Origin: Patescibacteria group bacterium
GTDB taxonomy: Bacteria; Patescibacteriota; Microgenomatia; Levybacterales; GWA1-39-11
Assembly (NCBI GenBank): GCA_035549295.1
Contig: DASZRG010000036.1
Location: 13,324 to 77,323 of the forward strand
Reading direction: 5' to 3'
Length of the DNA: 64,000 nt
Shown: positions 3,342-61,714 of the stretch, piece by piece
Layout of the letters: the number at the start of each line of letters is the position of its first letter
Numbering within the stretch: position 1 is the first letter of the stretch
Translations under genes and position numbers: made by a program
Notes under the pieces: generated by a model
Database searches by the model: none
The model's input: only the letters and a program-made list of their open reading frames with translations
Told to the model about the DNA's origin: nothing

Positions 3342-3833
3342 CTATTTCTTATGCGTCGCGGCGAGCAGCTTTGCTCCCTTAAGTGCTCTTTCTTCATCCT
3401 CAGAAAGATCATATTCTGCTCCTTTTCCAAGGACTACCCCTTTTGCATACCAACGTGTTCCCGTTCTCGTATGAAGACTAGAAATAATAACTCCAGTATT
3501 CTCAGCGTCAACTAAAGCAAGTATAAAACTTTGGTCACCACCCGTATCTTTAAACGGATTAAAACGAACTAGTCCTATCTTTTGAATATGCGAAAGACCG
3601 TCTCTGTTTATCTTATCATAGGAAGACACGAGCTGGTCAAGTGTCTTTTTGTTCTCTTCTTCTTTTGCTAAAACATCTTCCATAAGTCCCATTATTGATT
3701 CTTTTTTTCCATTCTTAGTCATTCTGGAATATGTCGAACGGAAGGTAATCAGGAAAAAAGTTAGGATTACGAGCCAGAGAAATGTGAGGAAAAAAGCAAC
3801 AAAATCAGGAGCCAAGTTCATACGGTAAACCAT
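3342..3833 (-). CDS. DUF4446-like membrane protein
   Basis: 163 aa with an N-terminal TM segment and a conserved C-terminal domain (GLVRFNPF...GGDQSFILALVD) reminiscent of DUF4446. Confidence 0.45.
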   Translation of the reverse strand: MVYRMNLAPDFVAFFLTFLWLVILTFFLITFRSTYSRMTKNGKKESIMGLMEDVLAKEEENKKTLDQLVSSYDKINRDGLSHIQKIGLVRFNPFKDTGGDQSFILALVDAENTGVIISSLHTRTGTRWYAKGVVLGKGAEYDLSEDEERALKGAKLLAATHKK

Positions 3834-12095: not shown

Positions 12096-13025
12096 TCATT
12101 GTTTGATCTTTTTCAAGGCTTCAAAAAAATCGGTCATTTGAAAGCCGAGAGAGACTAGTTTATCATTTTTCATACTTACATTAAAGGGGCGGGCAGCACG
12201 ACCTTTATATAGTTTACCTCGCGTGGTCAATTCAATTTTTGTTTCTGGAATATTATACTCACGAGCTAAAGCGACTCCGATATCTCTTGGTGAGATAAAG
12301 TTATTTCCAACCAAATTAATAATTCCCGAAGTATCTTTGTTTATTAAAAAATCCAAACCATAAGCAATATCATCAATAAATGTTGGCGTAATTGTTTGAT
12401 CTGATACTAGCTCAACGATTTCTTTTGTTCTGAGAAGTTCAACTAAAGTCCAAATCAAATCCCGCTTCAGTGGACTTTTATAGCCAAAGGGGTAAGCTAT
12501 ACGAACTACTAAGTCATGCTCACCCAAAGTTTTTTCGCCCCATAATTTTGTCTGGCCATACCAATCAACTGGAGTTGGAATATCCTCCTCAGAATATGGA
12601 CTTTCTTTTTGTCCGTCAAAAATAAAATCGGTCGAAACATAAATTATTTTTCTGTCATTTTCAGCAACCCAGTCTGATAGGTTTTTCGTACCAACGACAT
12701 TTATTCCAAATGCAGAACTCGAATTTTTCCAGGCCTCCTTGTTTAAGTTTTCAAAATCTATATCTTTTCCTTCAAGCAATTTTGCTTTTTTAAGCTTCTT
12801 TAAATCATTTTCTCTATCATCTTCACATGCATCTACATTCGTCTTGGCTGCAAGATGAACAATAATATCAGGATTTTTATCTGACAAAAATTTGTTTGTT
12901 TTTTTTGCGTCAGTAATATCAATACCGTAAGAAGAAGATAGTGGGATTATCTCGTATTTGCTTTTGAGTAAATCAAAAAAACGCGACCCAACAAGTCCTG
13001 TCGCACCGGTCAGTACTATTTTCAT
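12096..13025 (-). CDS. RmlD-like dTDP-4-dehydro-6-deoxyhexose reductase
   Basis: MKIVLTGATGLVGS and YGQTK (YxxxK) match the RmlD substrate-binding-family layout. It carries a ~30-aa acidic insertion. Confidence 0.55.
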   Translation of the reverse strand: MKIVLTGATGLVGSRFFDLLKSKYEIIPLSSSYGIDITDAKKTNKFLSDKNPDIIVHLAAKTNVDACEDDRENDLKKLKKAKLLEGKDIDFENLNKEAWKNSSSAFGINVVGTKNLSDWVAENDRKIIYVSTDFIFDGQKESPYSEEDIPTPVDWYGQTKLWGEKTLGEHDLVVRIAYPFGYKSPLKRDLIWTLVELLRTKEIVELVSDQTITPTFIDDIAYGLDFLINKDTSGIINLVGNNFISPRDIGVALAREYNIPETKIELTTRGKLYKGRAARPFNVSMKNDKLVSLGFQMTDFFEALKKIKQ

Positions 13026-16757: not shown

Positions 16758-17069
16758 CTAATACTCTGGCAGTACTAGATCTCCCAGGTTTTTTTCATTC
16801 ACTTTTATACCCAATGCAAAGGATAGGGCGTTTGCAATTGCAATTCCTACTCGAAGTCCAGTAAAAGATCCGTCACTGCTCTCTACAAATATCTCATTTA
16901 TCTCATTAGCTTTTATTTTAGCTTTTTGCAAAACTTTTTGAATCAAAGGCAATGCAGCCTGGAACTTCTGTTCATATGCAGTCGAACTTTCAACGTACTC
17001 GCGACCACCACAACTTAGGCGAATTACAATCTTTTTGTTATCTCTGGTGTCTATAAATAGTTTGTTCAT
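16758..17069 (-). CDS. tsaB: tRNA t6A37 biosynthesis protein TsaB (YeaZ), short form
   Basis: SSDGSFTGLRVGIAIANAL matches the TsaB GSFTGLRIG motif. The protein is only 103 aa, so it is the N-terminal domain only. Confidence 0.6.
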   Translation of the reverse strand: MNKLFIDTRDNKKIVIRLSCGGREYVESSTAYEQKFQAALPLIQKVLQKAKIKANEINEIFVESSDGSFTGLRVGIAIANALSFALGIKVNEKNLGDLVLPEY

Positions 17070-23259: not shown

Positions 23260-23370
23260 AAACTCATTATTATAAGATTAAATTTTGCAAAATCAATCTA
23301 AAAGGCGAGATTGCTTCTATGCACTTACCTAAGTGGAACTTAGCTTGTTGCTCGTAATAATGAAATATTT

Positions 23371-23467
23371 GTCACTGCGAGCCCGAAGGGCGTGGCAGGC
23401 TCGCAGGCGAGATTGCTTCGTTTCACTGCACTTCGCTTCGCTCGTTTGTTCACTCGCAATGACAAGG
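23371..23467. repeat. Hairpin repeat of family 2 (GTCA[C/T]TGCGAG...CTCGCAATGAC termini)
   Basis: TGTCACTGCGAGCC...GGCTCGCAGGCGAGATTGCTTCG...CACTCGCAATGACAAGG. Its ends are inverted repeats, and it shares GAGATTGCTTC with the copies at 33922, 34236 and 50804. Confidence 0.75.
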
Positions 23468-23517
23468 ATTCTTAGATTACTTTTTCGAATTTGGTCTTGT
23501 CGTAAAAGTTGGAATTC

Positions 23518-23652
23518 GTCATTCTGAACCCCGATCCAATCGGGGAACCTTGTTTCAGAATCTCATACTTCGAGGTCCTGAATAACGAGCAATTTGTCAT
23601 GCTGAATTTATTTCAGCATCTCGTTGAGGTCCTGAAACAAGTTCAGGACGAC
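23518..23652. repeat. Composite hairpin repeat of family 1 (modules M1-M3), flanked by 32-bp imperfect direct repeats at 23481-23512 and 23669-23700
   Basis: GTCATTCTGAACCCCGATCCAATCGGGGAACCTTGTTTCAGAATCTC... is identical over ~58 nt to 33204-33261. The modules are xxCTGAA...TTCAGxx hairpins. Confidence 0.85.
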
Positions 23653-26368: not shown

Positions 26369-29300
26369 ATGAGTTTTATTAATCGATTTAAAGAAACGAA
26401 ATTTCTAGACCTTGAACACAAAATAGGTATTGCTGTTTTTGTACTCCTTACACTTGTCGCAATCCCCGTAACAGTTGTCAGCGTCAAAAAGACTCAAGAT
26501 GACCGCTCACATGCAGCTGAGCCCCAGAATAATTTGCAACTTGGATATTTCGACCCTTCATATTTTGGGGTCATGTCCTCAGTCGCTCACGTGGACAACG
26601 AAGTACTTGTCCGATACAACAATTCAGTAAATATCAAGACAAGAACTGGAGTTAACCCTTCAACGGACACGTTTCAGGTTGCCGACATAACTGGCGGGTT
26701 GCCAAACAATACTTTGAACAATCTAAAATCACTTTCAGTCGCATCAATTGAAAGCGCTTACAAAGAACCAACGGCTCAAAATACTCAGTGGGGGAAAACA
26801 TATATATCAAATACTTACCGTGTGAAGCTTAATCAAGGACAAGACCTGGTTGCAGCGATGAATAAGCTTTGCAGTGATGGGAAAGTCACAATGTACTGTG
26901 AGCCAAATTATAAATTTACTCCAGCAACAAATCCAAATGGAGGTCAAACTTCACCAACAAGTGGAAAAGTTCTTGCCGCAACAACTACCAATCAGTCACG
27001 ACCATCAGCGCTTATCGCAATCGTTGATACTCCACTGCCAGTCAACTACAACGATATTGCGAACGCTTTTGGCTTCTCCATATCAAACAGTCAAATACAA
27101 CCAGCAATTGAAGGCACGCGAGATGACAATTACAAATATCACGCAATCTTTGCAGCAGCAGCCGGATATGCTACCAACCCTGGAGTTAAATATATTTTTG
27201 AAGGCGCTTGCGGAACGACATGCTCCAATTCAAGTCTTGCACAAGGCATAATAGATGCAGTCAATAAAAATGCAAAAGTTATATATATAGGTGAAGCCAA
27301 CACTTTTCCAAAAGGCGTTGTCCCAATGAGTATCGCATCAGCCGTCGGATATGCCGTCGCAAACGGCGCAAAAGTTGTAGCCCCTATAGTCAACCCAAGC
27401 TCCCCAACAAGCATGAATTCTTTACCTAATACAACAAGTTTTATTGACAAAGTTCTAACATTCGCACACAAAATAACCGGCTTCCCACCTATCGCAGCCG
27501 CACAGGGACTTCTTCAACCAGTGCCTTCGAGTGTACAAAATTCAATTAATACATATGCACCAAAATCGTCATCTCAATTACAGAATGCTCTTAGCCAATA
27601 TGCAACCGGAAATACTGGTGCCGGAATAGCACAAAACAATCCAAATACAATTCTTATTAGTCCCCAAGATACTGGCATAATAACCCAACTCGTAAAAGCA
27701 GTAAATCCAAATGCATCGGCCCAGGATGTTCAGAATTTAATAAAAAACAGTCAAACGGCTGATGCAAATGGCAGAATTGATGCTTCCACAATTCTTCAAG
27801 AAGCCAGTCAACTCTCGAGTGCAAGTAACGGAACTAATACATCAAATAAGCAGACGTCCCCAGCCCCATCATCAGCTCCTACTCAAAATGCAAATGGGGC
27901 AAAGCCTAGCACCACAACCCCCCCTTGTACATCTCAACCAAGCTGCTCACCCGGCGTAAACGCTGTAACTGGAAATACTACTCAGGCGGCGACTGGAGCA
28001 ATAACAATGCCTCAAGCAATACAGTCAATCCAAACAAATTCTACTGGAGCCCTCCAACAGTTGGGCATCAACTCGTCACAGCTCCAGTCTGGAATCAATG
28101 GGAATTCTATAGCAACAGGAAATGGTGCAGCGGCTTACGGAATACTACTGTCTGCAAATCCCAAGCTAACCAACGCGCAAGCAAATGATATTATTGCAGC
28201 AAATACCAAAGTTCAGAACTGTGGTGGCGGTGGAAGCCAACCAGCTTGCGGTATTCAACTTGGTCAAGCTGTTCAGGATGCATTAGGTACAGCTTACAAT
28301 CCTCCTACCCTTCCCCCAACTGCACCTGCTGCCTCTACTTCCAATCCACCGAGCACTGACCCAATCATAACAGTACCGACAGCAGCTGCACAAACAGCTT
28401 ACCAAACCGCAGTAAACAACGGAGACAACTTAATTTGCCAAGCATGCGGTAAAAATGGCGAGGATTTAACTTTCAACCAAATGACCGGACAACCATATTA
28501 CACGGATGATGCACGAACTTGGTATCTAGCACAAATAGGCCTAACACCAACAGGAGCGAATGCAACATCTGCAACCGCAAACCCTGTCGTACAACCTATA
28601 GCAGCTGTTTCTGTTCCGCTGGGAAGCGCAGTAACTGGAAATCCTCCAGCTGCAGATTCTAATACACAACCACCAAAATCACAATCCTCTACCGCTCAGA
28701 GCGTAAGTGATCTTAATCAACTTGCAAGTGACATAGCTGCAGGTAAGTATGATAATTTAAGTGCAGTTCAGAAGGAAACAATGTTTGTAAATGCATTTAA
28801 TGCAAATAATATTGACGTAAAGGACTTAACACCAGCTCAAGCACAACAACTTCAAGCCGATCTCAACACATATCATGATCAAATCACATCAGCGCAAGAT
28901 GCACAGGCTTCATGTGTTGTAAATTGTAGTACGTACGACAGTAATGCTACTGACCAAGCATATCAAAATTGGAATTCTCTTTCTAACCAACTTACACAAA
29001 CTGGACTTACAGATCCATGTGCAGGGTTACCTGCAAATATGCCTTGTGGAGATGGTGGTAGTAGCAGTAATCTTACTCAAAATAGCTCAGGCGTAAGTAC
29101 ATGCGGAAGCGTTGAAGCAAAGCTAAGTGGAACATGCGATCAAGCAGCAAATGGAACAGTAAGTACTGCACCAACAGGGGACCAATTAAGATCTGGCTGC
29201 GTCAGAGTGGGAAGCGGAATCAGCAATGATTGTGTTGATACGTGGGTTGGAAATCAAGTAAATGGGCTAATAAATGGCATAGGCACACTTACGACTGATA

Positions 29301-29965
29301 ATTCTTCTCAGAAAACTTATGCTTCTAAATTTGATACATTATCAACACCTAACCCAGATACCGTAGCCCCTCTCCCCCAAAGTTCAACATCTGACAATAT
29401 ACTCTACTCTTACTTATCACCATATGATTCGAGTACTTCCAATTCGGACACCACAAATATTAGCCAAGAACAAAATGAACTATTAGCCCAAGGACAATTG
29501 AACTACTCTGACATATCAACTCCCGGCCAAACAGATCTTACAAACGGAGCGAATGGGGCATGCTCTGATGGCTGCATTTCCAATTCAGACGGTACAATTT
29601 ATGATCCAACAACAGATCAACTTTTGGGTCTAGATCAGACAGGAGTTTATGTACCTGTTGCTGGACCACCAACGCCTGAGGATATTCCTTATTCTGACCA
29701 GACAACTGCCGTCTCAAATGATGCATCTGGTATCTTCTCTGGAATAACAAATATTGCAGACCAGGCAACTCAAATGGCGCAAGGAGCAACTGATCAAACA
29801 GCAGATGCTGCTCAAAATCTTATAGATGCAGGTTTTCCTCCTGATGGATCGCCGAACTATGCTGATAATGGTCAGCCGATATATGACGTAGCGATGCCGG
29901 ATCCTGGTACGTTTATACCAACAGATCAAGGAGGATGTGACCCGACATATGGGTGCGCGTACTAA
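26369..29965 (+). CDS. Large secreted/surface protein (1198 aa): N-terminal signal anchor, a subtilase-propeptide-like (I9-like) segment with a possibly degenerate S8-like region, then ~800 aa of Gln/Asn/Thr/Ser/Gly-rich low-complexity sequence with Cys pairs
   Basis: The N-terminal TM segment is followed by VLVRYNNS...VTMYCEPNYKF, which resembles a subtilase propeptide ending in V.Y.EPNY. IAIVDT resembles the catalytic-Asp motif. No clear GTSxxAP serine motif was found. The long C-terminal region is polar and low in complexity. Confidence 0.55.
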   Translation: MSFINRFKETKFLDLEHKIGIAVFVLLTLVAIPVTVVSVKKTQDDRSHAAEPQNNLQLGYFDPSYFGVMSSVAHVDNEVLVRYNNSVNIKTRTGVNPSTDTFQVADITGGLPNNTLNNLKSLSVASIESAYKEPTAQNTQWGKTYISNTYRVKLNQGQDLVAAMNKLCSDGKVTMYCEPNYKFTPATNPNGGQTSPTSGKVLAATTTNQSRPSALIAIVDTPLPVNYNDIANAFGFSISNSQIQPAIEGTRDDNYKYHAIFAAAAGYATNPGVKYIFEGACGTTCSNSSLAQGIIDAVNKNAKVIYIGEANTFPKGVVPMSIASAVGYAVANGAKVVAPIVNPSSPTSMNSLPNTTSFIDKVLTFAHKITGFPPIAAAQGLLQPVPSSVQNSINTYAPKSSSQLQNALSQYATGNTGAGIAQNNPNTILISPQDTGIITQLVKAVNPNASAQDVQNLIKNSQTADANGRIDASTILQEASQLSSASNGTNTSNKQTSPAPSSAPTQNANGAKPSTTTPPCTSQPSCSPGVNAVTGNTTQAATGAITMPQAIQSIQTNSTGALQQLGINSSQLQSGINGNSIATGNGAAAYGILLSANPKLTNAQANDIIAANTKVQNCGGGGSQPACGIQLGQAVQDALGTAYNPPTLPPTAPAASTSNPPSTDPIITVPTAAAQTAYQTAVNNGDNLICQACGKNGEDLTFNQMTGQPYYTDDARTWYLAQIGLTPTGANATSATANPVVQPIAAVSVPLGSAVTGNPPAADSNTQPPKSQSSTAQSVSDLNQLASDIAAGKYDNLSAVQKETMFVNAFNANNIDVKDLTPAQAQQLQADLNTYHDQITSAQDAQASCVVNCSTYDSNATDQAYQNWNSLSNQLTQTGLTDPCAGLPANMPCGDGGSSSNLTQNSSGVSTCGSVEAKLSGTCDQAANGTVSTAPTGDQLRSGCVRVGSGISNDCVDTWVGNQVNGLINGIGTLTTDNSSQKTYASKFDTLSTPNPDTVAPLPQSSTSDNILYSYLSPYDSSTSNSDTTNISQEQNELLAQGQLNYSDISTPGQTDLTNGANGACSDGCISNSDGTIYDPTTDQLLGLDQTGVYVPVAGPPTPEDIPYSDQTTAVSNDASGIFSGITNIADQATQMAQGATDQTADAAQNLIDAGFPPDGSPNYADNGQPIYDVAMPDPGTFIPTDQGGCDPTYGCAY

Positions 29966-32869: not shown

Positions 32870-33196
32870 ATGGTAAAACACTTTTATTCATTTATAGTTG
32901 AGACTGATACTCTATTTATGGAGATTGATTCACTTGAGATTTCAGATCATGAAAAAGAGCATCTCAAATCTCTTGCTGAGTCAAATATTCATCATGCCGT
33001 TCTCGATTCAGTTTTATCGAAACTGTCTGAATTGGACAAAGATATATTTTTGGAATTCATAAATTCGAAAAATCATGAACGTACTTGGAAATTTTTAAAC
33101 ACAAAAATAAGAAATGCAGAAGATCATATCAAGAATGCCGCAGCTGAAATAAAAAAAGAGCTCTTCAAAGATATCCACGAAGCCAAAAAATCATAA
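32870..33196 (+). CDS. Hypothetical small helical protein
   Basis: 108-aa ORF after a very AT-rich promoter-like spacer. No family recognised. Confidence 0.3.
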   Translation: MVKHFYSFIVETDTLFMEIDSLEISDHEKEHLKSLAESNIHHAVLDSVLSKLSELDKDIFLEFINSKNHERTWKFLNTKIRNAEDHIKNAAAEIKKELFKDIHEAKKS

Positions 33197-33203
33197 TAAT
33201 TTC

Positions 33204-33320
33204 GTCATTCTGAACCCCGATCCAATCGGGGAACCTTGTTTCAGAATCTCATACTTCGAGGTCCTGAAACAAGTTCAGGACGACAATTGGAAATAGTCAT
33301 GCTGAATTTATTTCAGCATC
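33204..33320. repeat. Hairpin repeat of family 1 (modules M1-M2-M3)
   Basis: GTCATTCTGAACCCCGATCCAATCGGGGAACCTTGTTTCAGAATCTC + GTCCTGAAACAAGTTCAGGACGAC + GTCATGCTGAATTTATTTCAGCATC. Near-identical to 23518-23575. Confidence 0.85.
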
Positions 33321-36542: not shown

Positions 36543-36630
36543 CGTCGTCCTGATACTCGCTTCAGGACCTCGACGAGATGCTGAAACACGTGAAAGCTGC
36601 TGCTTCCAGTGCAAGCAAGTTCAGCATGAC
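36543..36630. repeat. Hairpin repeat of family 1, inverted orientation (M2 then M3 with an insertion)
   Basis: GTCGTCCTGATACTCGCTTCAGGACCTCGAC + GAGATGCTGAAACACG...GTTCAGCATGAC. Confidence 0.75.
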
Positions 36631-41293: not shown

Positions 41294-43081
41294 ATGATAG
41301 AATTACAAAATCTTATTAGGCGCGATTTTATGAAAAATAAATGGGTTTTATTTGTACTTATATTTGCATTGGCTGCATTTTTTAGACTATACAAACTCGA
41401 CTCAGTACCTCCAGGCCTACATATCGATGAGCTACCATTTGGCTATAACGCATATTCCATCCTTACGACTGGAAAAGATGAATTTGGGGTAAAAATGCCG
41501 ATGGTACTCCGAGCTTATGACGACTTCAGACCCGCACTACTATCTTATCTAATAATACCCTTTATAAAACTTTTTGGATTGAATATTTTAAGTATTAGAC
41601 TTCCAAATGTTATTCTTTCACTTATCTCAATATATGCTTTATATGAACTAACATATTTATTTGTACTTCTTGCATCCGAAAAAACGAAAACCAAACTACT
41701 AAAAGAAAAAGCTAAATATATTGCGCTATCAACCATTTTTCTTTTTGCAATTTCGCCATGGAATATATATCTGTCAAGAATCGCAATTGATACAAACGTA
41801 AGTTTTTCCCTATTTCTTTTTGGTCTTTTATTTTTATTTAAGTTCTTAAATAGTAAATTGACAAAACACTTATTATTTTCACTTTTATTTTTGTTTGCAA
41901 CATTTTTCTCATACAACGGGATTAAGTTGTTCCTTCCTGAGTTTTTAATTGCAACTTTTTTTGTTTTCTACAAACCTCTTACCCTAAAAAAAATAAATAT
42001 TACTCTGTTAATTTCATTTATTGTCATCATTTCGATGTTTTACCTTTTGGTTAACAAAAATTCAAATGGGCTTATGCGGCTGAATTCTATAAATTACGTT
42101 GCGCAAAGTCGTGATTATATACAAAATACGACATCGAAAAGAATAGTTTATGACGATCAAAATAAAGATATCATTGGCTCAATTTTTGATAATAGAAGGC
42201 TTTCATGGATTCCATACTTGGCCACAAATTATTTTGTGAACATTAATCCGTCATGGCTATATACAGACGATGGCACTCACTATACATACCGAATACCAGG
42301 CGTAGGTTTGTTTAATTTTTTTGAAATATCAATTCTTGTTGCAGGATTATTTTTTATCATTAAGTCAATAAAAACAAAGTTTTTAGTATTTATTTTTTTA
42401 TGGATTGGTGTTTCTATAATTCCCGCAGCACTCACAACAGATGCACCTAATGCATCCAGAATTTATCAATTACTTCCGCCATTACTCATGATTGAGGGAT
42501 ATGGGGCGTATGGGATTTTGGGGTGGTTAGGTAATTTGCAAAATAGTCAAATAAAAGCGCTATTATATTCTAGTTTTTGTTTGGTGTTATTAATATCTAT
42601 TCTGTGGCTTTATCATTCATACTTTACCCTTCTTCCCTATGAGAAATCATCAACTTATAACTACGGCGCTTCAAGCGCAATGATTTACGCAAAGGAAAGT
42701 GCCGGAAAATATAAAAATATTATTGTTTCAAGAAATGGCAATTTGAACTTTTCTTATATGTATTTTCTTTTCTTCAACAAATATAATCCAGGAAAATACA
42801 TAAGTTCTGGCGGAACAAAATCGGGAGGATTTTTAGTAGACCACAAGATTGAAAAATACTTGTTTACCAATCCAGGTTTAGTATTTAAAAATGTTAGCCA
42901 AAAATTTGATACTCCACTAGATTATAAAACCAACAAACAAACGCTCTACGTAGTGGATGCTTCGGATTTACCAGTTGATGAAACTGCAAAAAGGAAATAT
43001 TTGGATAAATTTAAAACGCTGAGAGTTTTTAATCTGTTAAATGGGGATCCCGCGATATACGCTCTGACCGGAAAAAACTAG
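41294..43081 (+). CDS. GT-C fold membrane glycosyltransferase (ArnT/PMT-like), second copy
   Basis: LYKLDSVPPGLHIDELPFGYNAY and ~12 TM helices. It is a paralogue-like of 4695-6239. Confidence 0.6.
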   Translation: MIELQNLIRRDFMKNKWVLFVLIFALAAFFRLYKLDSVPPGLHIDELPFGYNAYSILTTGKDEFGVKMPMVLRAYDDFRPALLSYLIIPFIKLFGLNILSIRLPNVILSLISIYALYELTYLFVLLASEKTKTKLLKEKAKYIALSTIFLFAISPWNIYLSRIAIDTNVSFSLFLFGLLFLFKFLNSKLTKHLLFSLLFLFATFFSYNGIKLFLPEFLIATFFVFYKPLTLKKINITLLISFIVIISMFYLLVNKNSNGLMRLNSINYVAQSRDYIQNTTSKRIVYDDQNKDIIGSIFDNRRLSWIPYLATNYFVNINPSWLYTDDGTHYTYRIPGVGLFNFFEISILVAGLFFIIKSIKTKFLVFIFLWIGVSIIPAALTTDAPNASRIYQLLPPLLMIEGYGAYGILGWLGNLQNSQIKALLYSSFCLVLLISILWLYHSYFTLLPYEKSSTYNYGASSAMIYAKESAGKYKNIIVSRNGNLNFSYMYFLFFNKYNPGKYISSGGTKSGGFLVDHKIEKYLFTNPGLVFKNVSQKFDTPLDYKTNKQTLYVVDASDLPVDETAKRKYLDKFKTLRVFNLLNGDPAIYALTGKN

Positions 43082-53425: not shown

Positions 53426-53428
53426 AAG

Positions 53429-53466
53429 TTAGTGACTAGATACTAGATATTAGTAACTAGGAATTG
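53429..53466. promoter_or_regulatory. CTAG-rich conserved motif copy, 3 nt upstream of the secA start codon
   Basis: TTAGTGACTAGATACTAGATATTAGTAACTAGGAATTG. Confidence 0.65.
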
Positions 53467-53536
53467 AGGTTATATTTTAGCACATCCCAGGCTCAAATAC
53501 TAAATGCGAATTGCTAGTTTAAATTCTTACTAAAGA

Positions 53537-53790
53537 GTGTCATTCTGAACCCCCATTTAATCGGGGGAACCTTGATTCAGAATCTCTAATCGAGACCCCG
53601 GATCCCGTGAGCTTCGCTCATGGTAAACAAGTCTGGAGTGACAAGTTTCTATTCGGGTTATTCGGAGTAAACATTCGGATAAATTCGCGTCTAAATGAAT
53701 TCGCCCCCCACTAATTACTCAGTGAGGGGCAGAATACCATTTGATCAATTGGTATTCCGAATTAAATCGGAATCCAACCGTAAACTAGTT
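53537..53790. repeat. String of family-1 and family-3 hairpin modules in the 650-bp secA-serS spacer
   Basis: It contains GTCATTCTGAACCCCCATTTAATCGGGGGAACCTTGATTCAGAATCTC, GAGACCCCGGA...TCTGGAGTGACAAG, TTCGGGTTATTCGGA, CCCCCCACTAATTACTCAGTGAGGGG, GAATACCATTTGATCAATTGGTATTC, and ATTCCGAATTAAATCGGAAT. Confidence 0.8.
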
Positions 53791-54075
53791 AAATTCTAGC
53801 TTATTTCTTCTTCTTCTTTTTTTTAGCAGCCATTATAAACACCTCCCGTCGCTTCTGAAAAAAATTCAGAAATTAGGATAATTTAATCGTGAATAATTAG
53901 TATCGATTTGTCAAGAAAAATACGTTGCTTCAAAAGTAATAATTTGGATTGATATATCAGTCAAAATCAAAAAATAAAATATGCATTTTTGTAGGCACAA
54001 AAATGGAAAAATAATTTAGATTTTTTTGGCCGCAATTAGGAAACATTTGTATTGTTTTAATGCGGCACAAAGGAT

Positions 54076-55969: not shown

Positions 55970-56596
55970 ATGATTAAGGCTGTTATTTTCGACGTTGACG
56001 GTGTGTTAATTGATTCTTTTGAAGCAAATTTAAGATTTTTCGAAAACTTAATGGTAAAAGCGGGCTATCCAAAACCTAAGCGTGAGGAATTTCATGAGTT
56101 ATTCCATCTGAGTATGATGGATACAATAAAAGCGCTAACGAAATTAAATTCGGAAGAAGAATTACGAAAAATTTGGAATATGGGAAAAAGTAGAGAGGTC
56201 AACTACCCCGTCGATCTATTAGCTACGCCTGAGGGAATGGAAAAAACAATACTTGATCTCAATAAAAATTATACGCTTGGAATTGTATCCAACAGAGTCA
56301 AAGAAAGTGTTTATGAGGCACCAAGGCTTGCAAAACTAAAAGATCATTTTAAATCAACAATTACATATGAGGATACGATAAATCATAAACCAAACCCTGA
56401 ACCACTTTTACTTGCAGCGAGCGAACTAGATATTGAACCACGAAGTATCGTTTATGTTGGAGATGCGGAAAATGATCTGATAGCAGGAAAAGCAGCTGGA
56501 ATGAAAGTCATAGCATATTCACCCAACAAATATAAAAACACGGACGCTCAAGCTTTGTTATTCACCGATCTTCCTGCAATAATTAGAACATTATGA
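55970..56596 (+). CDS. HAD-superfamily hydrolase (beta-phosphoglucomutase/phosphatase-like)
   Basis: IKAVIFDVDGVLIDS (motif I), VSNR, and GDAENDLIAGKAAG (motif IV). Confidence 0.75.
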   Translation: MIKAVIFDVDGVLIDSFEANLRFFENLMVKAGYPKPKREEFHELFHLSMMDTIKALTKLNSEEELRKIWNMGKSREVNYPVDLLATPEGMEKTILDLNKNYTLGIVSNRVKESVYEAPRLAKLKDHFKSTITYEDTINHKPNPEPLLLAASELDIEPRSIVYVGDAENDLIAGKAAGMKVIAYSPNKYKNTDAQALLFTDLPAIIRTL

Positions 56597-57537
56597 TAAA
56601 CATTCAAATACCAAATTGGCAAGAACATGAACTACTCGACACCGGAAACGGCCGAAAGCTTGAGCGTTTTGGAAAATATATTCTAAATCGCATTGAACCA
56701 CAAGCAACGTGGCATCAAACTCTGAGCGAGTCAGAATGGCACAAAGCAGATGCTGTTTTTCGAAAAGCTAGTGACCGCGGTGGAAATTGGGAACTAAAAA
56801 AACAAATCCCAGGGAAGTGGACAATGTCATATGAAAGTCTGAAACTTGAACTTCGACTTACACCATTTGGACATGTGGGAGTTTTTCCGGACCAGTCAAA
56901 TCAGTGGGAATGGATTTCAAATAAAATCAAACAAAGAAGTCATCCTGAACCCCGATTGAATCGGGGGAACCTTGTTTCAGGATCTCAAGCTGAGACCCCG
57001 GAACAAGTCCGGGGTGACAAAGCTGTAAATGTTTTGAGTTTGTTTACTTATACTGGTGCTTCGACTCTAGAGGCGGCGGCGGCGGGCGCTCATGTAACTC
57101 ATGTTGATGCATCAAAACCAGCTATAACTTGGGCACGAGAAAACCAGAGAATATCAGGACTAACTGACAAACCTATTCGCTGGATCCCTGAGGATGCTTT
57201 AAAGTTTGTAAAACGAGAAGTAAGACGAAATTCACGCTACGACGCGATCATAATGGACCCTCCGAAATTTGGACGAGGAACTCAAGGAGAAGTTTGGAAA
57301 TTTGAAGAATCATTTCCAGAACTTATAGACTATTGTCGACAGATACTTTCAGATAACCCACTGTTCATACTTACGACTGCATATGCGATCCCTGTCTCGT
57401 CAATTTCTCTTGCAAATATGATCTCAGATGCAACTCGTAAGCTAAAAGGGAATATTGAGTATGGAGAACTAGCACTTAAACAAACATCAAACGAAAAACT
57501 TTTACCAACCGCCATTTTCTGTAAATGGGAGCGTTAA
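56593..57537 (+). CDS. SAM-dependent methyltransferase of the RlmI/YccW type, carrying an in-frame hairpin-repeat insertion
   Basis: VLSLFTYTGASTLEAA is motif I-like. IIMDPPKFGRG is the DPPxF motif. It makes an ATGA overlap with the upstream HAD gene. Confidence 0.5.
   Translation: MINIQIPNWQEHELLDTGNGRKLERFGKYILNRIEPQATWHQTLSESEWHKADAVFRKASDRGGNWELKKQIPGKWTMSYESLKLELRLTPFGHVGVFPDQSNQWEWISNKIKQRSHPEPRLNRGNLVSGSQAETPEQVRGDKAVNVLSLFTYTGASTLEAAAAGAHVTHVDASKPAITWARENQRISGLTDKPIRWIPEDALKFVKREVRRNSRYDAIIMDPPKFGRGTQGEVWKFEESFPELIDYCRQILSDNPLFILTTAYAIPVSSISLANMISDATRKLKGNIEYGELALKQTSNEKLLPTAIFCKWER
56941..57024. repeat. Family-1 hairpin repeat (M1 + GACCCCGGAACAAGTCCGGGGTGAC hairpin) inserted in-frame within the methyltransferase CDS
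   Basis: CATCCTGAACCCCGATTGAATCGGGGGAACCTTGTTTCAGGATCTC... is 84 nt with no stop codon and encodes HPEPRLNRGNLVSGSQAETPEQVRGDKA. It is near-identical in reverse complement to 61664-61714. Confidence 0.8.
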
Positions 57538-57538
57538 T

Positions 57539-59719
57539 TTAGGAGGCTCTTACTACACCAAATTCTTCAACTTTACCGCCGCAATATTTCACAATAATAT
57601 CGCATGTTTCTTGCAAAACTTGAGCGACCTTTTCGGGTGTTACATCATAAACTCCATCAACATTTATATATAAATTTTTTGTATCAAGTTGCACTGCGGT
57701 TCTCACTGAGTCTCGATAATTAAAGTCCATATTTATTCCTCCTATTTGATCAAAATAAGCTATCTCACCATTTTTGTAATAAACTTCTGACTCATCTCCG
57801 AGTAAATGAATTTTATCTTGATCAGTCGAAAAACGAAGAGCCGTTGGGAATTCAATCTTATCCAAATCAAAAGCACCAACTGAAATTTTGTTTTTTATAA
57901 CTACTAGATTGTAAGCATCAACACATGTGTTAACCTTGTATAAATCTTTTTTTGCAATAATTCTCCTAAGTAACGCCTCAGGACTTGGACGACGAGAGTG
58001 CCAATCAATTCCAGTTTCTTTATAGAGTTTTCTGTAGCTTAATATTTCAGGGGACGCTGAGATATCATCGTTAGTCATATTCCTAAGGCTTGAGACAGCC
58101 TCTTTAATCTCTCCATCTAGCTGATCGTTCCCCTTCTCAATTGAAACACCACGAATTATTGCTACGCCGCATGAAACAGACGCGAATTTTTCAGAAATAG
58201 CTTTATCAATAAAAAAAATGTTTGGATTATTAAATACTTTGACTTTAACTTCCTTTTTATTTTCGACTTTTGTTGCGGGCTTTAGAGTCGGGAAAATAAC
58301 AACTTCTTTTATTGCCCAGGTATTAGTAAGGAACATAGTAAGACGATCTATGCCAACACCAATTCCACCAAAGGGTGGCATTCCAAACTCCATTGCGGCC
58401 AAAAAATCTTCATCGACGTGCTGCGCTTCGTCTTTATTTACACGTGCAGCTGATGAATCTTTTGTCAGCCTCTCGCGCTGGATAACTGGATCTGTTAATT
58501 CGCTCCATCCGTCATAAATTTCTTTTCCACCAATGTAAGCTTCGAACCTCTCGACCCAGCCAGGTTTATTTCTGTGATTTTTAGACAGAGGGCTTACGTC
58601 CTCCGGGTAATCTATAATATATGTAGGCTCATCTAAAGTTTGCGGAATTAAATGCTCAAAAATTAGGTATATAAGTTGTCCTTTTGTCTCTCCGCCAACA
58701 ATTTGTGCATCGTGACAATTTTCTTTTGCGTATTTAAGGAGTGTTTCGGCACTTTCTTTTTCAACATCAAGTCCCAGCTTATCGAGCAGTATTTGAGACA
58801 TCTCGATTCTAGGCCATTTTTTACCAACATCGATATCTCGATCTCCAACTTTTATTACAGTTGTTCCATATATCTTTTTTGCTAAATGTTTGATAAGACC
58901 CTCTGCAACATCCATGACTCTATGATAATCGGCATACGCCTCGTACCACTCAATCATTGTAAATTCGGGAAAGTGGGTGTGATCTATGCCTTCATTCCTA
59001 AAGTCTTTTGCAATTTCGTAAACCTTCTCGTATCCTCCAACAATCAACCTCTTAAGATACAATTCGTCAGCAATTCGCAAGTACATTTCCTGGCCAAATG
59101 CATTAACATGCGTTTTAAAAGGTCTCGCATTTGCCCCGCCGTATAAAGGCTGCAATGTTGGAGTCTCAACTTCCCAAAAACCTACACTATCTAGATATTC
59201 ACGTGTTCCGCTAACAATTTTGGTTCTAATATTGAATCTCTCGCGAACTTCAGGATTTAGGAGCAGATCTAAATATCTTTGACGAAATCTCGTCTCAACG
59301 TCTTTTACGCCAAACCACTCACTTGGAAGGGTCGCGATGGATTTAGTAAGTAGTGTATAAGACGTAGGTGCGATTGAAATTTCACCTGCAATTGTTTTGA
59401 CAATTTCACCCTCAACTCCAATAAAATCGCCAATGTCGAGAAGTTTTACATTTTTAAAATCATCACCAAGTAATTTTTTCTGGAAAAAAACTTGTACGCT
59501 ACCTGTCTCATCTTTAAGATCTGCAAAAGCAATATTACCGTGCTCGCGAAATGAATAAAGTCTTCCAGCAGTTTTTACAACTTTTCCAAGATCCGATTCA
59601 GACGCTTCTTTGATGGTATTTTTTTTATCATATGAGGCAGCATAAGGATTCCATCCTAGTTCTCGAATTTTCTCAAGCTTTTCAAGTTTTATTTTTTTAT
59701 ATTGATTATCGTCTTGCAT
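57539..59719 (-). CDS. lysS: Lysyl-tRNA synthetase (class II) with a ~230-aa C-terminal extension
   Basis: The N-terminal ~495 aa has an OB anticodon-binding domain and class II motifs (FRNEGID, GGIGVGIDRL). The extra C-terminal domain (FIDKAISEKF...VRAS) may be B3/B4-like. Confidence 0.8.
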   Translation of the reverse strand: MQDDNQYKKIKLEKLEKIRELGWNPYAASYDKKNTIKEASESDLGKVVKTAGRLYSFREHGNIAFADLKDETGSVQVFFQKKLLGDDFKNVKLLDIGDFIGVEGEIVKTIAGEISIAPTSYTLLTKSIATLPSEWFGVKDVETRFRQRYLDLLLNPEVRERFNIRTKIVSGTREYLDSVGFWEVETPTLQPLYGGANARPFKTHVNAFGQEMYLRIADELYLKRLIVGGYEKVYEIAKDFRNEGIDHTHFPEFTMIEWYEAYADYHRVMDVAEGLIKHLAKKIYGTTVIKVGDRDIDVGKKWPRIEMSQILLDKLGLDVEKESAETLLKYAKENCHDAQIVGGETKGQLIYLIFEHLIPQTLDEPTYIIDYPEDVSPLSKNHRNKPGWVERFEAYIGGKEIYDGWSELTDPVIQRERLTKDSSAARVNKDEAQHVDEDFLAAMEFGMPPFGGIGVGIDRLTMFLTNTWAIKEVVIFPTLKPATKVENKKEVKVKVFNNPNIFFIDKAISEKFASVSCGVAIIRGVSIEKGNDQLDGEIKEAVSSLRNMTNDDISASPEILSYRKLYKETGIDWHSRRPSPEALLRRIIAKKDLYKVNTCVDAYNLVVIKNKISVGAFDLDKIEFPTALRFSTDQDKIHLLGDESEVYYKNGEIAYFDQIGGINMDFNYRDSVRTAVQLDTKNLYINVDGVYDVTPEKVAQVLQETCDIIVKYCGGKVEEFGVVRAS

Positions 59720-61582: not shown

Positions 61583-61663
61583 ATATTTTTTCCAACAAAA
61601 AAATAACCCCTTCTACGGAGTCTGCTTCTTTGCTGATTTAGAAATTATTATTACATTCATATT

Positions 61664-61714
61664 GAGATCCTGAAACAAGGTTCCCCCGATTCAATCGGGG
61701 TTCAGGATGGCGAC
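61664..61714. repeat. Family-1 hairpin repeat (M1, inverted orientation), abutting the greA stop
   Basis: GAGATCCTGAAACAAGGTTCCCCCGATTCAATCGGGGTTCAGGATGGCGAC. Confidence 0.85.

Follow-up and report, generated by a model that had tools for sequence, protein, structure and literature searches.

We analysed a 64,000-nt stretch of the genome of a Patescibacteria group bacterium (GenBank assembly GCA_035549295.1, contig DASZRG010000036.1; hereafter the window, numbered from its first letter) in which a hairpin-forming repeat lies within the reading frame of a methyltransferase gene (56593..57537). Our analysis indicates that a dispersed palindromic repeat of family CGTC-2, within the CGTC-tagged repetitive extragenic palindromes (REPs), was very probably inserted in this gene after the split from its nearest sampled relatives, and was probably kept by virtue of its frame and its position in a linker. 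The locus offers a clean example of such an event, pairing a syntenic empty site with an identical donor-like copy of one repeat unit (unit A) 4.7 kb away. Both the repeat class and in-frame insertion of its members are already published; what may be new is Patescibacteria as host phylum, a composite nested unit that spreads whole, and the repeated independent use of one inter-domain linker.

The element and its empty-site counterparts

The gene and its insert comprise the following features:

56593..57537, plus strand: host gene, a 314-aa class I S-adenosylmethionine-dependent methyltransferase of the 2igt type (from the open reading frame (ORF), PF10672 and 2igt homology)
56939..57019, plus strand: inserted element, two CGTC-type REP units arranged head to head as a heterodimer, 80 nt plus one ambiguous A
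56939..56986, plus strand: unit A, GTC, stem ATCCTGAA, expanded loop, stem TTCAGGAT and tail CTC
56950..56966, plus strand: nested inner hairpin in the unit A loop, CCCCGAT-TGA-ATCGGGG (from the sequence, comparison with simple units, and fold)
56987..56991, plus strand: spacer AAGCT, 5 nt, between units A and B (from the sequence)
56992..57018, minus strand: unit B, inverted, reading (T)GTC ACCCCGGA CTTGT TCCGGGGT CTC on the minus strand; 27 nt, 8-bp stem, 5-nt loop

Repeat homology places the element at 56939-57018 (GTC...GAC, 80 nt), with the GTC heads pointing outward, and encodes residues ~116-142 of the host protein. An earlier note on this DNA had recognised an in-frame, stop-free copy of the repeat at 56941-57024 and called it a 28-aa insertion; that 84-nt stretch is present exactly as quoted, translates without stops as HPEPRLNRGNLVSGSQAETPEQVRGDKA within ORF 56593..57537, and does hold the repeat and an extra segment relative to orthologues, but repeat homology shifts the boundaries to 56939-57018 (56939-57019 as an in-frame 81 nt) and the net excess is 26-27 codons. 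Two of the element's six reading frames are stop-free and the host gene uses one of them; the lack of stops is weaker evidence than it sounds, because any surviving copy must use one of these two. GC content is 55.6% in the element and 40.9% in the remainder of the gene. The simple unit of the window is 27 nt long, e.g. (T)GTC GTCCTGAA CTTGT TTCAGGAC CTC, and simple units (23626-23652, 33258-33284) have only CTTGT where unit A has the nested hairpin. Folded as RNA, the element gives a single long hairpin, with unit A paired to unit B (-41.1 kcal/mol, z -5.1); folded as DNA, it forms two hairpins (z -5.2). Peptides predicted for the insert region include the junction peptide SHPEPR and, spanning the insert, the tryptic peptide GNLVSGSQAETPEQVR.

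Orthologue alignment, which the earlier note had set as the test between an insertion and a conserved linker, favours the insertion: the segment has no counterpart in the syntenic orthologue P0002 or in any close orthologue. P0002 shares gene order with the window (serS, Ham1, methyltransferase, lysS, greA, ..., tsaD) and is 26 codons shorter at the site, and the close orthologues (72-78% identical outside the linker) all lack the segment, with the alignment running through the site. On the tree, the window protein groups with empty-site orthologues, its nearest relatives P0002, P0004, P0007 and P0013 all being empty. The syntenic 14 kb of the P0002 relative contains 0 perfect-stem units, whereas the matching span of the window has three REP loci. 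Furthermore, alignment to the solved structure 2igt falls into two blocks that abut in the chain: query residues 12-116 pair with 45-152 of the chain, and query residues 141-313 with 151-328. Excising 81 nt (56939-57019) gives ...K-I-K-Q-R-K-A-V-N-V-L-S-L-F, restoring the R-K-x-N motif of empty sites, and the DNA join would then read ...AAACAAAGA followed by AAAGCTGTA... When all in-frame deletions were scored against the close orthologues, any 78-81-nt deletion in the stretch was about equal; since alignment scores cannot separate these, the element boundaries rest on repeat homology. Both flanks of the element continue the same gene in the same frame.

The first 46 nt of the element recur as an exact reverse-complement copy at 61664-61709 (0 matches expected, 100 shuffles), and blastn aligned unit A with 61662-61709 at 48/48 identity; the earlier note had found this copy and carried it to 61714, whereas the match ends at 61709. 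The high similarity that it saw to copies at 23518, 33204 and 53537 corresponds to 86% (53539-53602) and 90% (23518-23565 and 33204-33251) in blastn. No other copy of the second part of the element (GAGACCCC...GTGACAAAG) was found in the window within 3 mismatches; this part still has the form of a canonical unit of the family, in inverted orientation, its closest relative being the partner unit 53592-53642. A census across the 64 kb (GTC-stem-loop-stem-CTC scan) returned 11 canonical units at 6 loci, five of them intergenic and only one, the in-gene locus 56939-57018, inside a long ORF. Unit A with its nested hairpin multiplies as a whole composite (5 window copies). The intergenic loci are as follows:

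61662..61709, minus strand: unit A copy 6 nt past the greA stop codon, 100% identical to the in-gene unit A
53539..53642, plus strand: A+B doublet in the secA/serS gap, the closest full-length relative of the in-gene element, with the nested hairpin in its unit B
33204..33319, plus strand: cluster downstream of ORF 32870-33196, with a composite unit A, a simple unit in inverted orientation and a third unit (GTCATGCTGAATTTATTTCAGCATCT)
23518..23652, plus strand: cluster downstream of def (peptide deformylase), with a composite unit A, a GTCATGCTGAA unit and, in inverted orientation, a GTCGTCCTGAA unit
36544..36630, plus strand: head-to-head doublet between convergent genes (downstream of Nramp), with the same architecture as the insert of orthologue P0010

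Two of these neighbourhoods hold further palindromes. At 23300-23470 lie more units, of another CGTC-like subfamily (GTCACTGCGAGCC...GGCTCGCAG and GAGATTGCTTC...CTCGCAATGAC), that resemble the inserts of orthologues P0033 and P0006. The secA/serS gap (53426-54075) is unusually long at 650 nt and contains, besides the REP doublet, several further hairpins (for example GCCCCCCACT...AGTGAGGGGC at ~53700-53730), without an Rfam match.

CGTC-tagged REPs have a CGTC/TGTC head, a stem of 8-9 bp that starts with A-T, a loop of 4-5 nt and a short tail that stays unpaired, occur mainly as head-to-head dimers, with heterodimers predominant in CGTC-2, and are located mainly between unidirectional or convergent genes; CGTC-2 combines the 8-bp stem of families 1-2 with a 5-nt loop, many copies having the tetranucleotide TGTC or CCTC (PMC3733652). 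Judged from its sequence, the window element is a CGTC-tagged REP of family CGTC-2. Head tags in the window are CGTC at 23517 and 33203 and TGTC at 53538 and in all five inverted units, including the in-gene unit B, and in 50 of 62 viral and genomic matches GTC is preceded by T or C. Stems of 8 bp (ATCCTGAA/TTCAGGAT, ATTCTGAA, ATGCTGAA) enclose a loop of CTTGT or TTTAT, as in CGTC-2, with the exceptions that the stem of unit B begins A-C and those of some units G-T. Doublets at 56939-57018, 53539-53642, 33204-33284 and 36544-36630 have outward tags and different stems and thus are heterodimers. As expected for dispersed, mostly extragenic repeats, the five intergenic loci include sites downstream of def, Nramp (convergent), greA and ORF 32870-33196, and the secA/serS gap. 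Moreover, the supplement of Di Nocera, De Gregorio & Rocco 2013 (BMC Genomics 14:522; PMC3733652) lists a CGTC-2 copy in Sulfurovum SUN_0512 with the in-frame peptide RHSELVSGS, which is the +2 frame of the 27-mer GTCATTCTGAACTTGTTTCAGGATCTC; the window gene reads that same frame as S-HPE...LVSGS.

Several observations weigh against this assignment or against a recent insertion. The unpaired 3-nt tail is CTC in all units, as opposed to the class consensus CCA; the head of the in-gene unit A is AGTC, not CGTC/TGTC, and its loop is expanded by the nested hairpin. The 48/48 identity with the copy at 61.7 kb covers unit A only and could reflect gene conversion, and unit B is without a close copy in the window. 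The element flanks show no evident target-site duplication; a flanking ACAAAG was considered as one and rejected, as ...GACAA belongs to the element in other copies. The nearest empty allele has 70% nucleotide identity to the window gene, so exact boundaries cannot be fixed; the trees are neighbour-joining and unbootstrapped, and the contig was assembled from a metagenome. Moreover, the intact-looking gene could be non-functional if the insertion is very recent. Finally, no transposase or HUH (including Y1_Tnp) Pfam match was found in the 64-kb window, which covers part of the genome only and has several ORFs without a Pfam match.

In the history that we propose, a CGTC-2 heterodimer would have inserted in the methyltransferase gene after the lineage split from the nearest sampled relatives. 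The copy would have survived by landing in one of the two stop-free frames of the element and in a solvent-exposed linker before the first Rossmann strand, where extra residues would leave the fold undisturbed. The copying may have been transposition-like and performed by a trans-acting enzyme, although none is known for CGTC REPs; the distribution of the copies suggests that the repeat is mobile.

Host protein and fate of the insert

The host protein consists of an N-terminal beta domain and a Rossmann domain, matches PF10672, and has PDB 2igt as its best solved homologue (E=1.5e-72). It had been called RlmI-like, which is fair for the catalytic domain, where the two are related, but the protein as a whole is of the 2igt type: Foldseek on the AlphaFold2 model gave TM 0.87 to 2igt versus 0.64 to RlmI 3c0k, and the NCBIfam RlmI models scored 37 and 48 bits (cutoffs 712 and 575). 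Because the RlmI match is confined to the catalytic domain and does not extend to the full-length architecture of an RlmI equivalog, the label is a loose one. A protein search yielded 7600 homologues, mostly 286-292 aa long (orthologue mode 286-290 aa), the closest at ~78% identity; 119 sequences were used for the alignment and the model. Every residue at family-invariant columns of the 119-sequence alignment is present in the host protein, and the gene is, as read from its coding sequence, intact.

The AlphaFold2 model built from the 119 sequences is confident overall (pLDDT 94.3, pTM 0.90). Helix 99-116 is followed by coil 117-145, the only weak stretch (pLDDT ~56-67), and by Rossmann strand 1 at 146-150, which agrees with the earlier placement of the site between the N-terminal domain and motif I; the suggested check for a surface loop by structure modelling likewise returned the segment as a low-confidence coil in an otherwise confident model. 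The 26-27 extra residues are probably disordered, as modelled. In Rossmann folds strand 1 has its N-terminal end on the side away from the cofactor site, so that a loop before strand 1 is plausibly harmless. The arrangement, in which a protein that is otherwise conserved carries an in-frame insertion at its surface, is that of the Rickettsia palindromic elements (RPEs). We infer that the insert is translated and that the enzyme still works.

It is very unlikely that the insertion instead inactivated the gene, leaving a young, undecayed pseudogene. An insertion that looks recent (the 48/48 copy) makes an intact frame weak evidence for function, and the insert ends only ~3 residues before the first Rossmann strand; against this, the insert is in frame in one of only two open frames, the invariant residues are all intact, the model folds confidently around the insert, and many orthologues carry inserts of up to 45 aa at the same place while being otherwise conserved. 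Identification of the insert as a known RNA family or intron was rejected: Rfam at gathering thresholds returned 0 hits across the whole window 1-64000 (no tRNA, rRNA or riboswitch).

The neighbours of the gene differ between the two syntenic loci. A HAD-family hydrolase gene (55970-56596, plus strand) has a 4-nt overlap (ATGA) with the methyltransferase start and is not in the relative's locus, where Ham1 adjoins the methyltransferase directly. On the other side, the window lysyl-tRNA synthetase (57539-59719, minus strand) is of class II (tRNA-synt_2 plus anticodon domain) and that of the relative (L002 4151-6400, minus strand) of class I (tRNA-synt_1f), both being fused at the C-terminus to a B3_4 domain. 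Between such fairly close genomes, this has the look of a non-orthologous replacement at one position.

Elsewhere in the window, ORFs without a Pfam match at E <= 1e-4 include 26369-29965 (plus strand, 1198 aa) and 41294-43081 (plus strand, 595 aa). A 102-aa ORF at 16758-17069 (minus strand) matches positions 31-84 only of the TsaD profile and has Sua5/TsaC and TsaE genes as neighbours; either a fragment or a very short TsaB-like protein may be encoded here. In an RmlD-like reductase gene (12096-13025, minus strand) the Pfam match is split by ~27-30 extra charged residues (EDDRENDLKKLKKAKLLEGKDIDFENLNKEAWK...) at ~12729-12812; considered as a second in-frame REP, this charged low-complexity insert was rejected as it is without a hairpin.

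Inserts at the same linker and copies beyond the window

Across the 119-homologue alignment, 28 of 33 internal insertions of at least 5 aa fall at this junction. Expanded linkers are scattered among 32 of the 119 sequences, and parsimony on the unbootstrapped neighbour-joining tree needs at least 21 state changes (gain or loss). Several insert-bearing homologues have no precomputed Pfam match. The inserts, identified from the DNA, are varied:

P0010: GTCGTCCTGAAC..CTC plus GAGATGCTGAA[nested]..GAC
P0060, P0044 and P0033: CGTC-type dimers (DNA of each)
P0094: CGTC-type cluster (DNA)
P0037, P0050 and P0081: a different palindrome family
P0086: simple tandem repeat

Their points of entry also vary. 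The window insert enters after residue 115/116 in phase 1, and that of P0010 four residues earlier, at helix position 8; in a large orthologue group the insert starts with GTC-AT(T/C), read as V-I at position 7 in phase 0, in place of the helix-ending K-I of empty sites. The window and P0010 inserts cannot derive from each other, because they belong to different clades and carry the nested hairpin in different units. A blastn-short search for further copies of the orthologues' inserts returned self matches only, within their own short loci. We infer that clustering at the junction mainly reflects purifying selection that removes insertions elsewhere. It is doubtful, though conceivable, that the junction is instead a preferred integration or replacement site for CGTC-type REPs, whether through local DNA or transcript structure or through REP-to-REP replacement primed by the GTCAT head, which in many lineages is read as V-I completing the preceding helix; if this were true, this protein family, given its 21 or more events in one small gene and the near-identical 27-mers across phyla and on viral contigs, would lend itself to a search for the machinery that mobilises CGTC REPs.

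The same data bear on whether the window insert is recent at all. One ancient insertion could have been followed by REP-to-REP replacement (gene conversion or template switching at the GTCAT/ATGAC ends) and many precise losses, leaving few independent hits and no recent de novo insertion here. The concentration of REP inserts at one junction, the many inserts that start at the same V-I position with a GTCAT head, and the near-identical short REP-derived linkers of P0006 and P0022, which stand apart on the tree, would all fit such a course, as would conversion as the source of the 100% identity to the 61.7-kb copy. We nevertheless consider it unlikely: the nearest relatives (P0002, P0004, P0007, P0013) all have empty sites, the window, P0010 and the V-I group differ in entry point and codon phase, the relative's syntenic region is without REPs, and parsimony requires at least 21 changes either way.

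A distinctly unlikely possibility is that the insert was kept for a function of its own, as an mRNA hairpin affecting translation or decay between the domains or as a tether altering substrate recognition. The structure is very stable (z about -5), about one-quarter of the homologues are expanded exactly at the junction, and REPs are thought to act as RNA elements (PMC3733652). However, junction inserts are unrelated in sequence and length (5-45 aa), a simple tandem repeat and a second family of palindromes being among them, and disorder is predicted for the inserted residues. Unit A, being identical to an intergenic copy, shows no sign of adaptation, and a terminator scan found no terminator-like signal at the insert.

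The preferred reading, retention of a dispersed repeat that happened to land in frame in a tolerant linker, finds parallels outside the window. An exact-pattern scan with the 27-mer (one genome per species, fixed 5-nt loop, loop bases free) found at least 119 loci in Bacteroidota, Alphaproteobacteria, Nitrospirota, Treponema, Elusimicrobiota, Dehalococcoidia and several groups of the candidate phyla radiation (CPR), a pattern that under-counts units with 4-nt or expanded loops in both the genome and the viral scans. Among the matches listed, the loops CTTGT, CTTGA and TTTAT dominate; the whole 27-mer, and not the stem alone, is therefore conserved, since few loops dominate despite free loop positions. 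Long stop-free stretches contain 6 of the 134 units among the matches listed, and 4 are supported as real proteins by inspection and Pfam:

Treponema glutamate-synthase (GltB)-like protein: in-frame unit, CHPELVSGSH
Lacinutrix venerupis DSM 28755 HsdM: in-frame unit, RHSELVSESH (L043, NZ_RCCH01000001.1, ~3750-3776; N6_Mtase E=2e-112)
Gammaproteobacterial AsnB-like protein: in-frame unit
Roizmanbacteria glycosyltransferase: in-frame dimer

Because Lacinutrix venerupis DSM 28755 is a cultured isolate, such in-frame copies are not a metagenome-assembly effect. For the window itself, a repeat-induced chimera in the metagenome-assembled contig is extremely unlikely. The contig does come from a metagenome-assembled genome and short repeats can mislead assemblers, but the flanks continue the same gene and frame, the protein is recorded from two contig records, and equivalent in-frame units occur in the Lacinutrix isolate and in many independent assemblies.

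In viral contigs the 27-mer was found on 52 stretches, against ~0.4 expected by chance (our own estimate). Some contigs, among them IMGVR_UViG_3300028845_000195 (L147, L138) and IMGVR_UViG_3300010223_000008 (L145, L152), have 4-6 copies; these all share a strand, are mostly single units and have other GTCATTTCGAG-type units beside them. Viral contigs are a possible vehicle for the cross-phylum spread of the 27-mer.

We found no earlier report of REPs in Patescibacteria/CPR in the literature searched. The present case indicates that selfish DNA of the REP/RPE style in protein genes also operates in the ultra-small, streamlined genomes of Patescibacteria. In CPR annotation, such inserts make proteins longer and disrupt their Pfam/NCBIfam matches. 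Ultimately, the repeated hits that one linker has taken and the spread of the 27-mer across phyla and viral contigs offer a handle on what moves CGTC-tagged repeats.

Comparison with known repeat systems

RPEs, reportedly described by Ogata et al. in 2000, share with the window element the presence of in-frame palindromic repeats in apparently functional genes, at a surface site off the catalytic core and with a few tens of residues. They differ in that RPE-1 is longer (~100-150 bp) and in that the host here is not an intracellular alphaproteobacterium. For the guanylate kinase of R. conorii, versions with and without the insert are reported to have been compared. The parallel with RPEs drawn in the earlier note nonetheless proves more than an analogy: the window units match CGTC-tagged REPs, and RPE-4/RPE-6 have been equated with CGTC-4/CGTC-1 (PMC3733652), the source from which the relatedness is taken.

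Other structured repeats are more distant. GTAG-tagged REPs, REP doublets forming hairpins (REPINs) and bacterial interspersed mosaic elements (BIMEs) are mobilised by RAYT transposases (Nunvar 2010; Bertels & Rainey 2011, as cited in PMC3733652). Like REPINs and BIMEs, the window element has two inverted hairpin units with a short spacer, foldable as one hairpin, and is dispersed and mostly extragenic; unlike a REPIN, it has the tag (C/T)GTC, not GTAG, and no RAYT/HUH gene was seen in the window. MITEs, short for miniature inverted-repeat transposable elements, can also be in frame in bacteria, as in the QMITEs of Coxiella (PMC5896051) and Nezha (review, PMC10969869), and are likewise small, non-autonomous, structured and able to extend or interrupt ORFs without destroying them. 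MITEs, however, are 70-300 bp long with 15-30-bp terminal inverted repeats derived from an insertion sequence (IS) and with target-site duplications, whereas the window has 27-nt hairpin units whose ends are inverted GTCA/TGAC heads, with no parent IS or duplication evident. With the Neisseria dRS3 repeats and Neisseria intergenic mosaic elements (NIMEs), the window units have in common the head-stem-loop-stem format and clustering. The dRS3 stem is ATTCCC...GGGAAT, differing from the window units, and dRS3 is a target for phage or IS integration. Neisseria dRS3 has been assigned to CGTC-1 (PMC3733652).

The closest known system is CGTC-2 itself, with which the window element shares the (C/T)GTC head, 8-bp stem, 5-nt loop, head-to-head heterodimers and in-frame copies, as well as the unit and frame of SUN_0512. 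CGTC-tagged REPs have no dedicated transposase, and some copies are intragenic and in frame, dimers encoding 20-30 aa (PMC3733652). The window repeats depart from CGTC-2 in the CTC tail in place of CCA, the AGTC in-gene head and the nested hairpin of unit A. Furthermore, Patescibacteria were not among the five phyla surveyed in PMC3733652, which does not describe a single linker of a protein family being used repeatedly, as seen in these methyltransferases.

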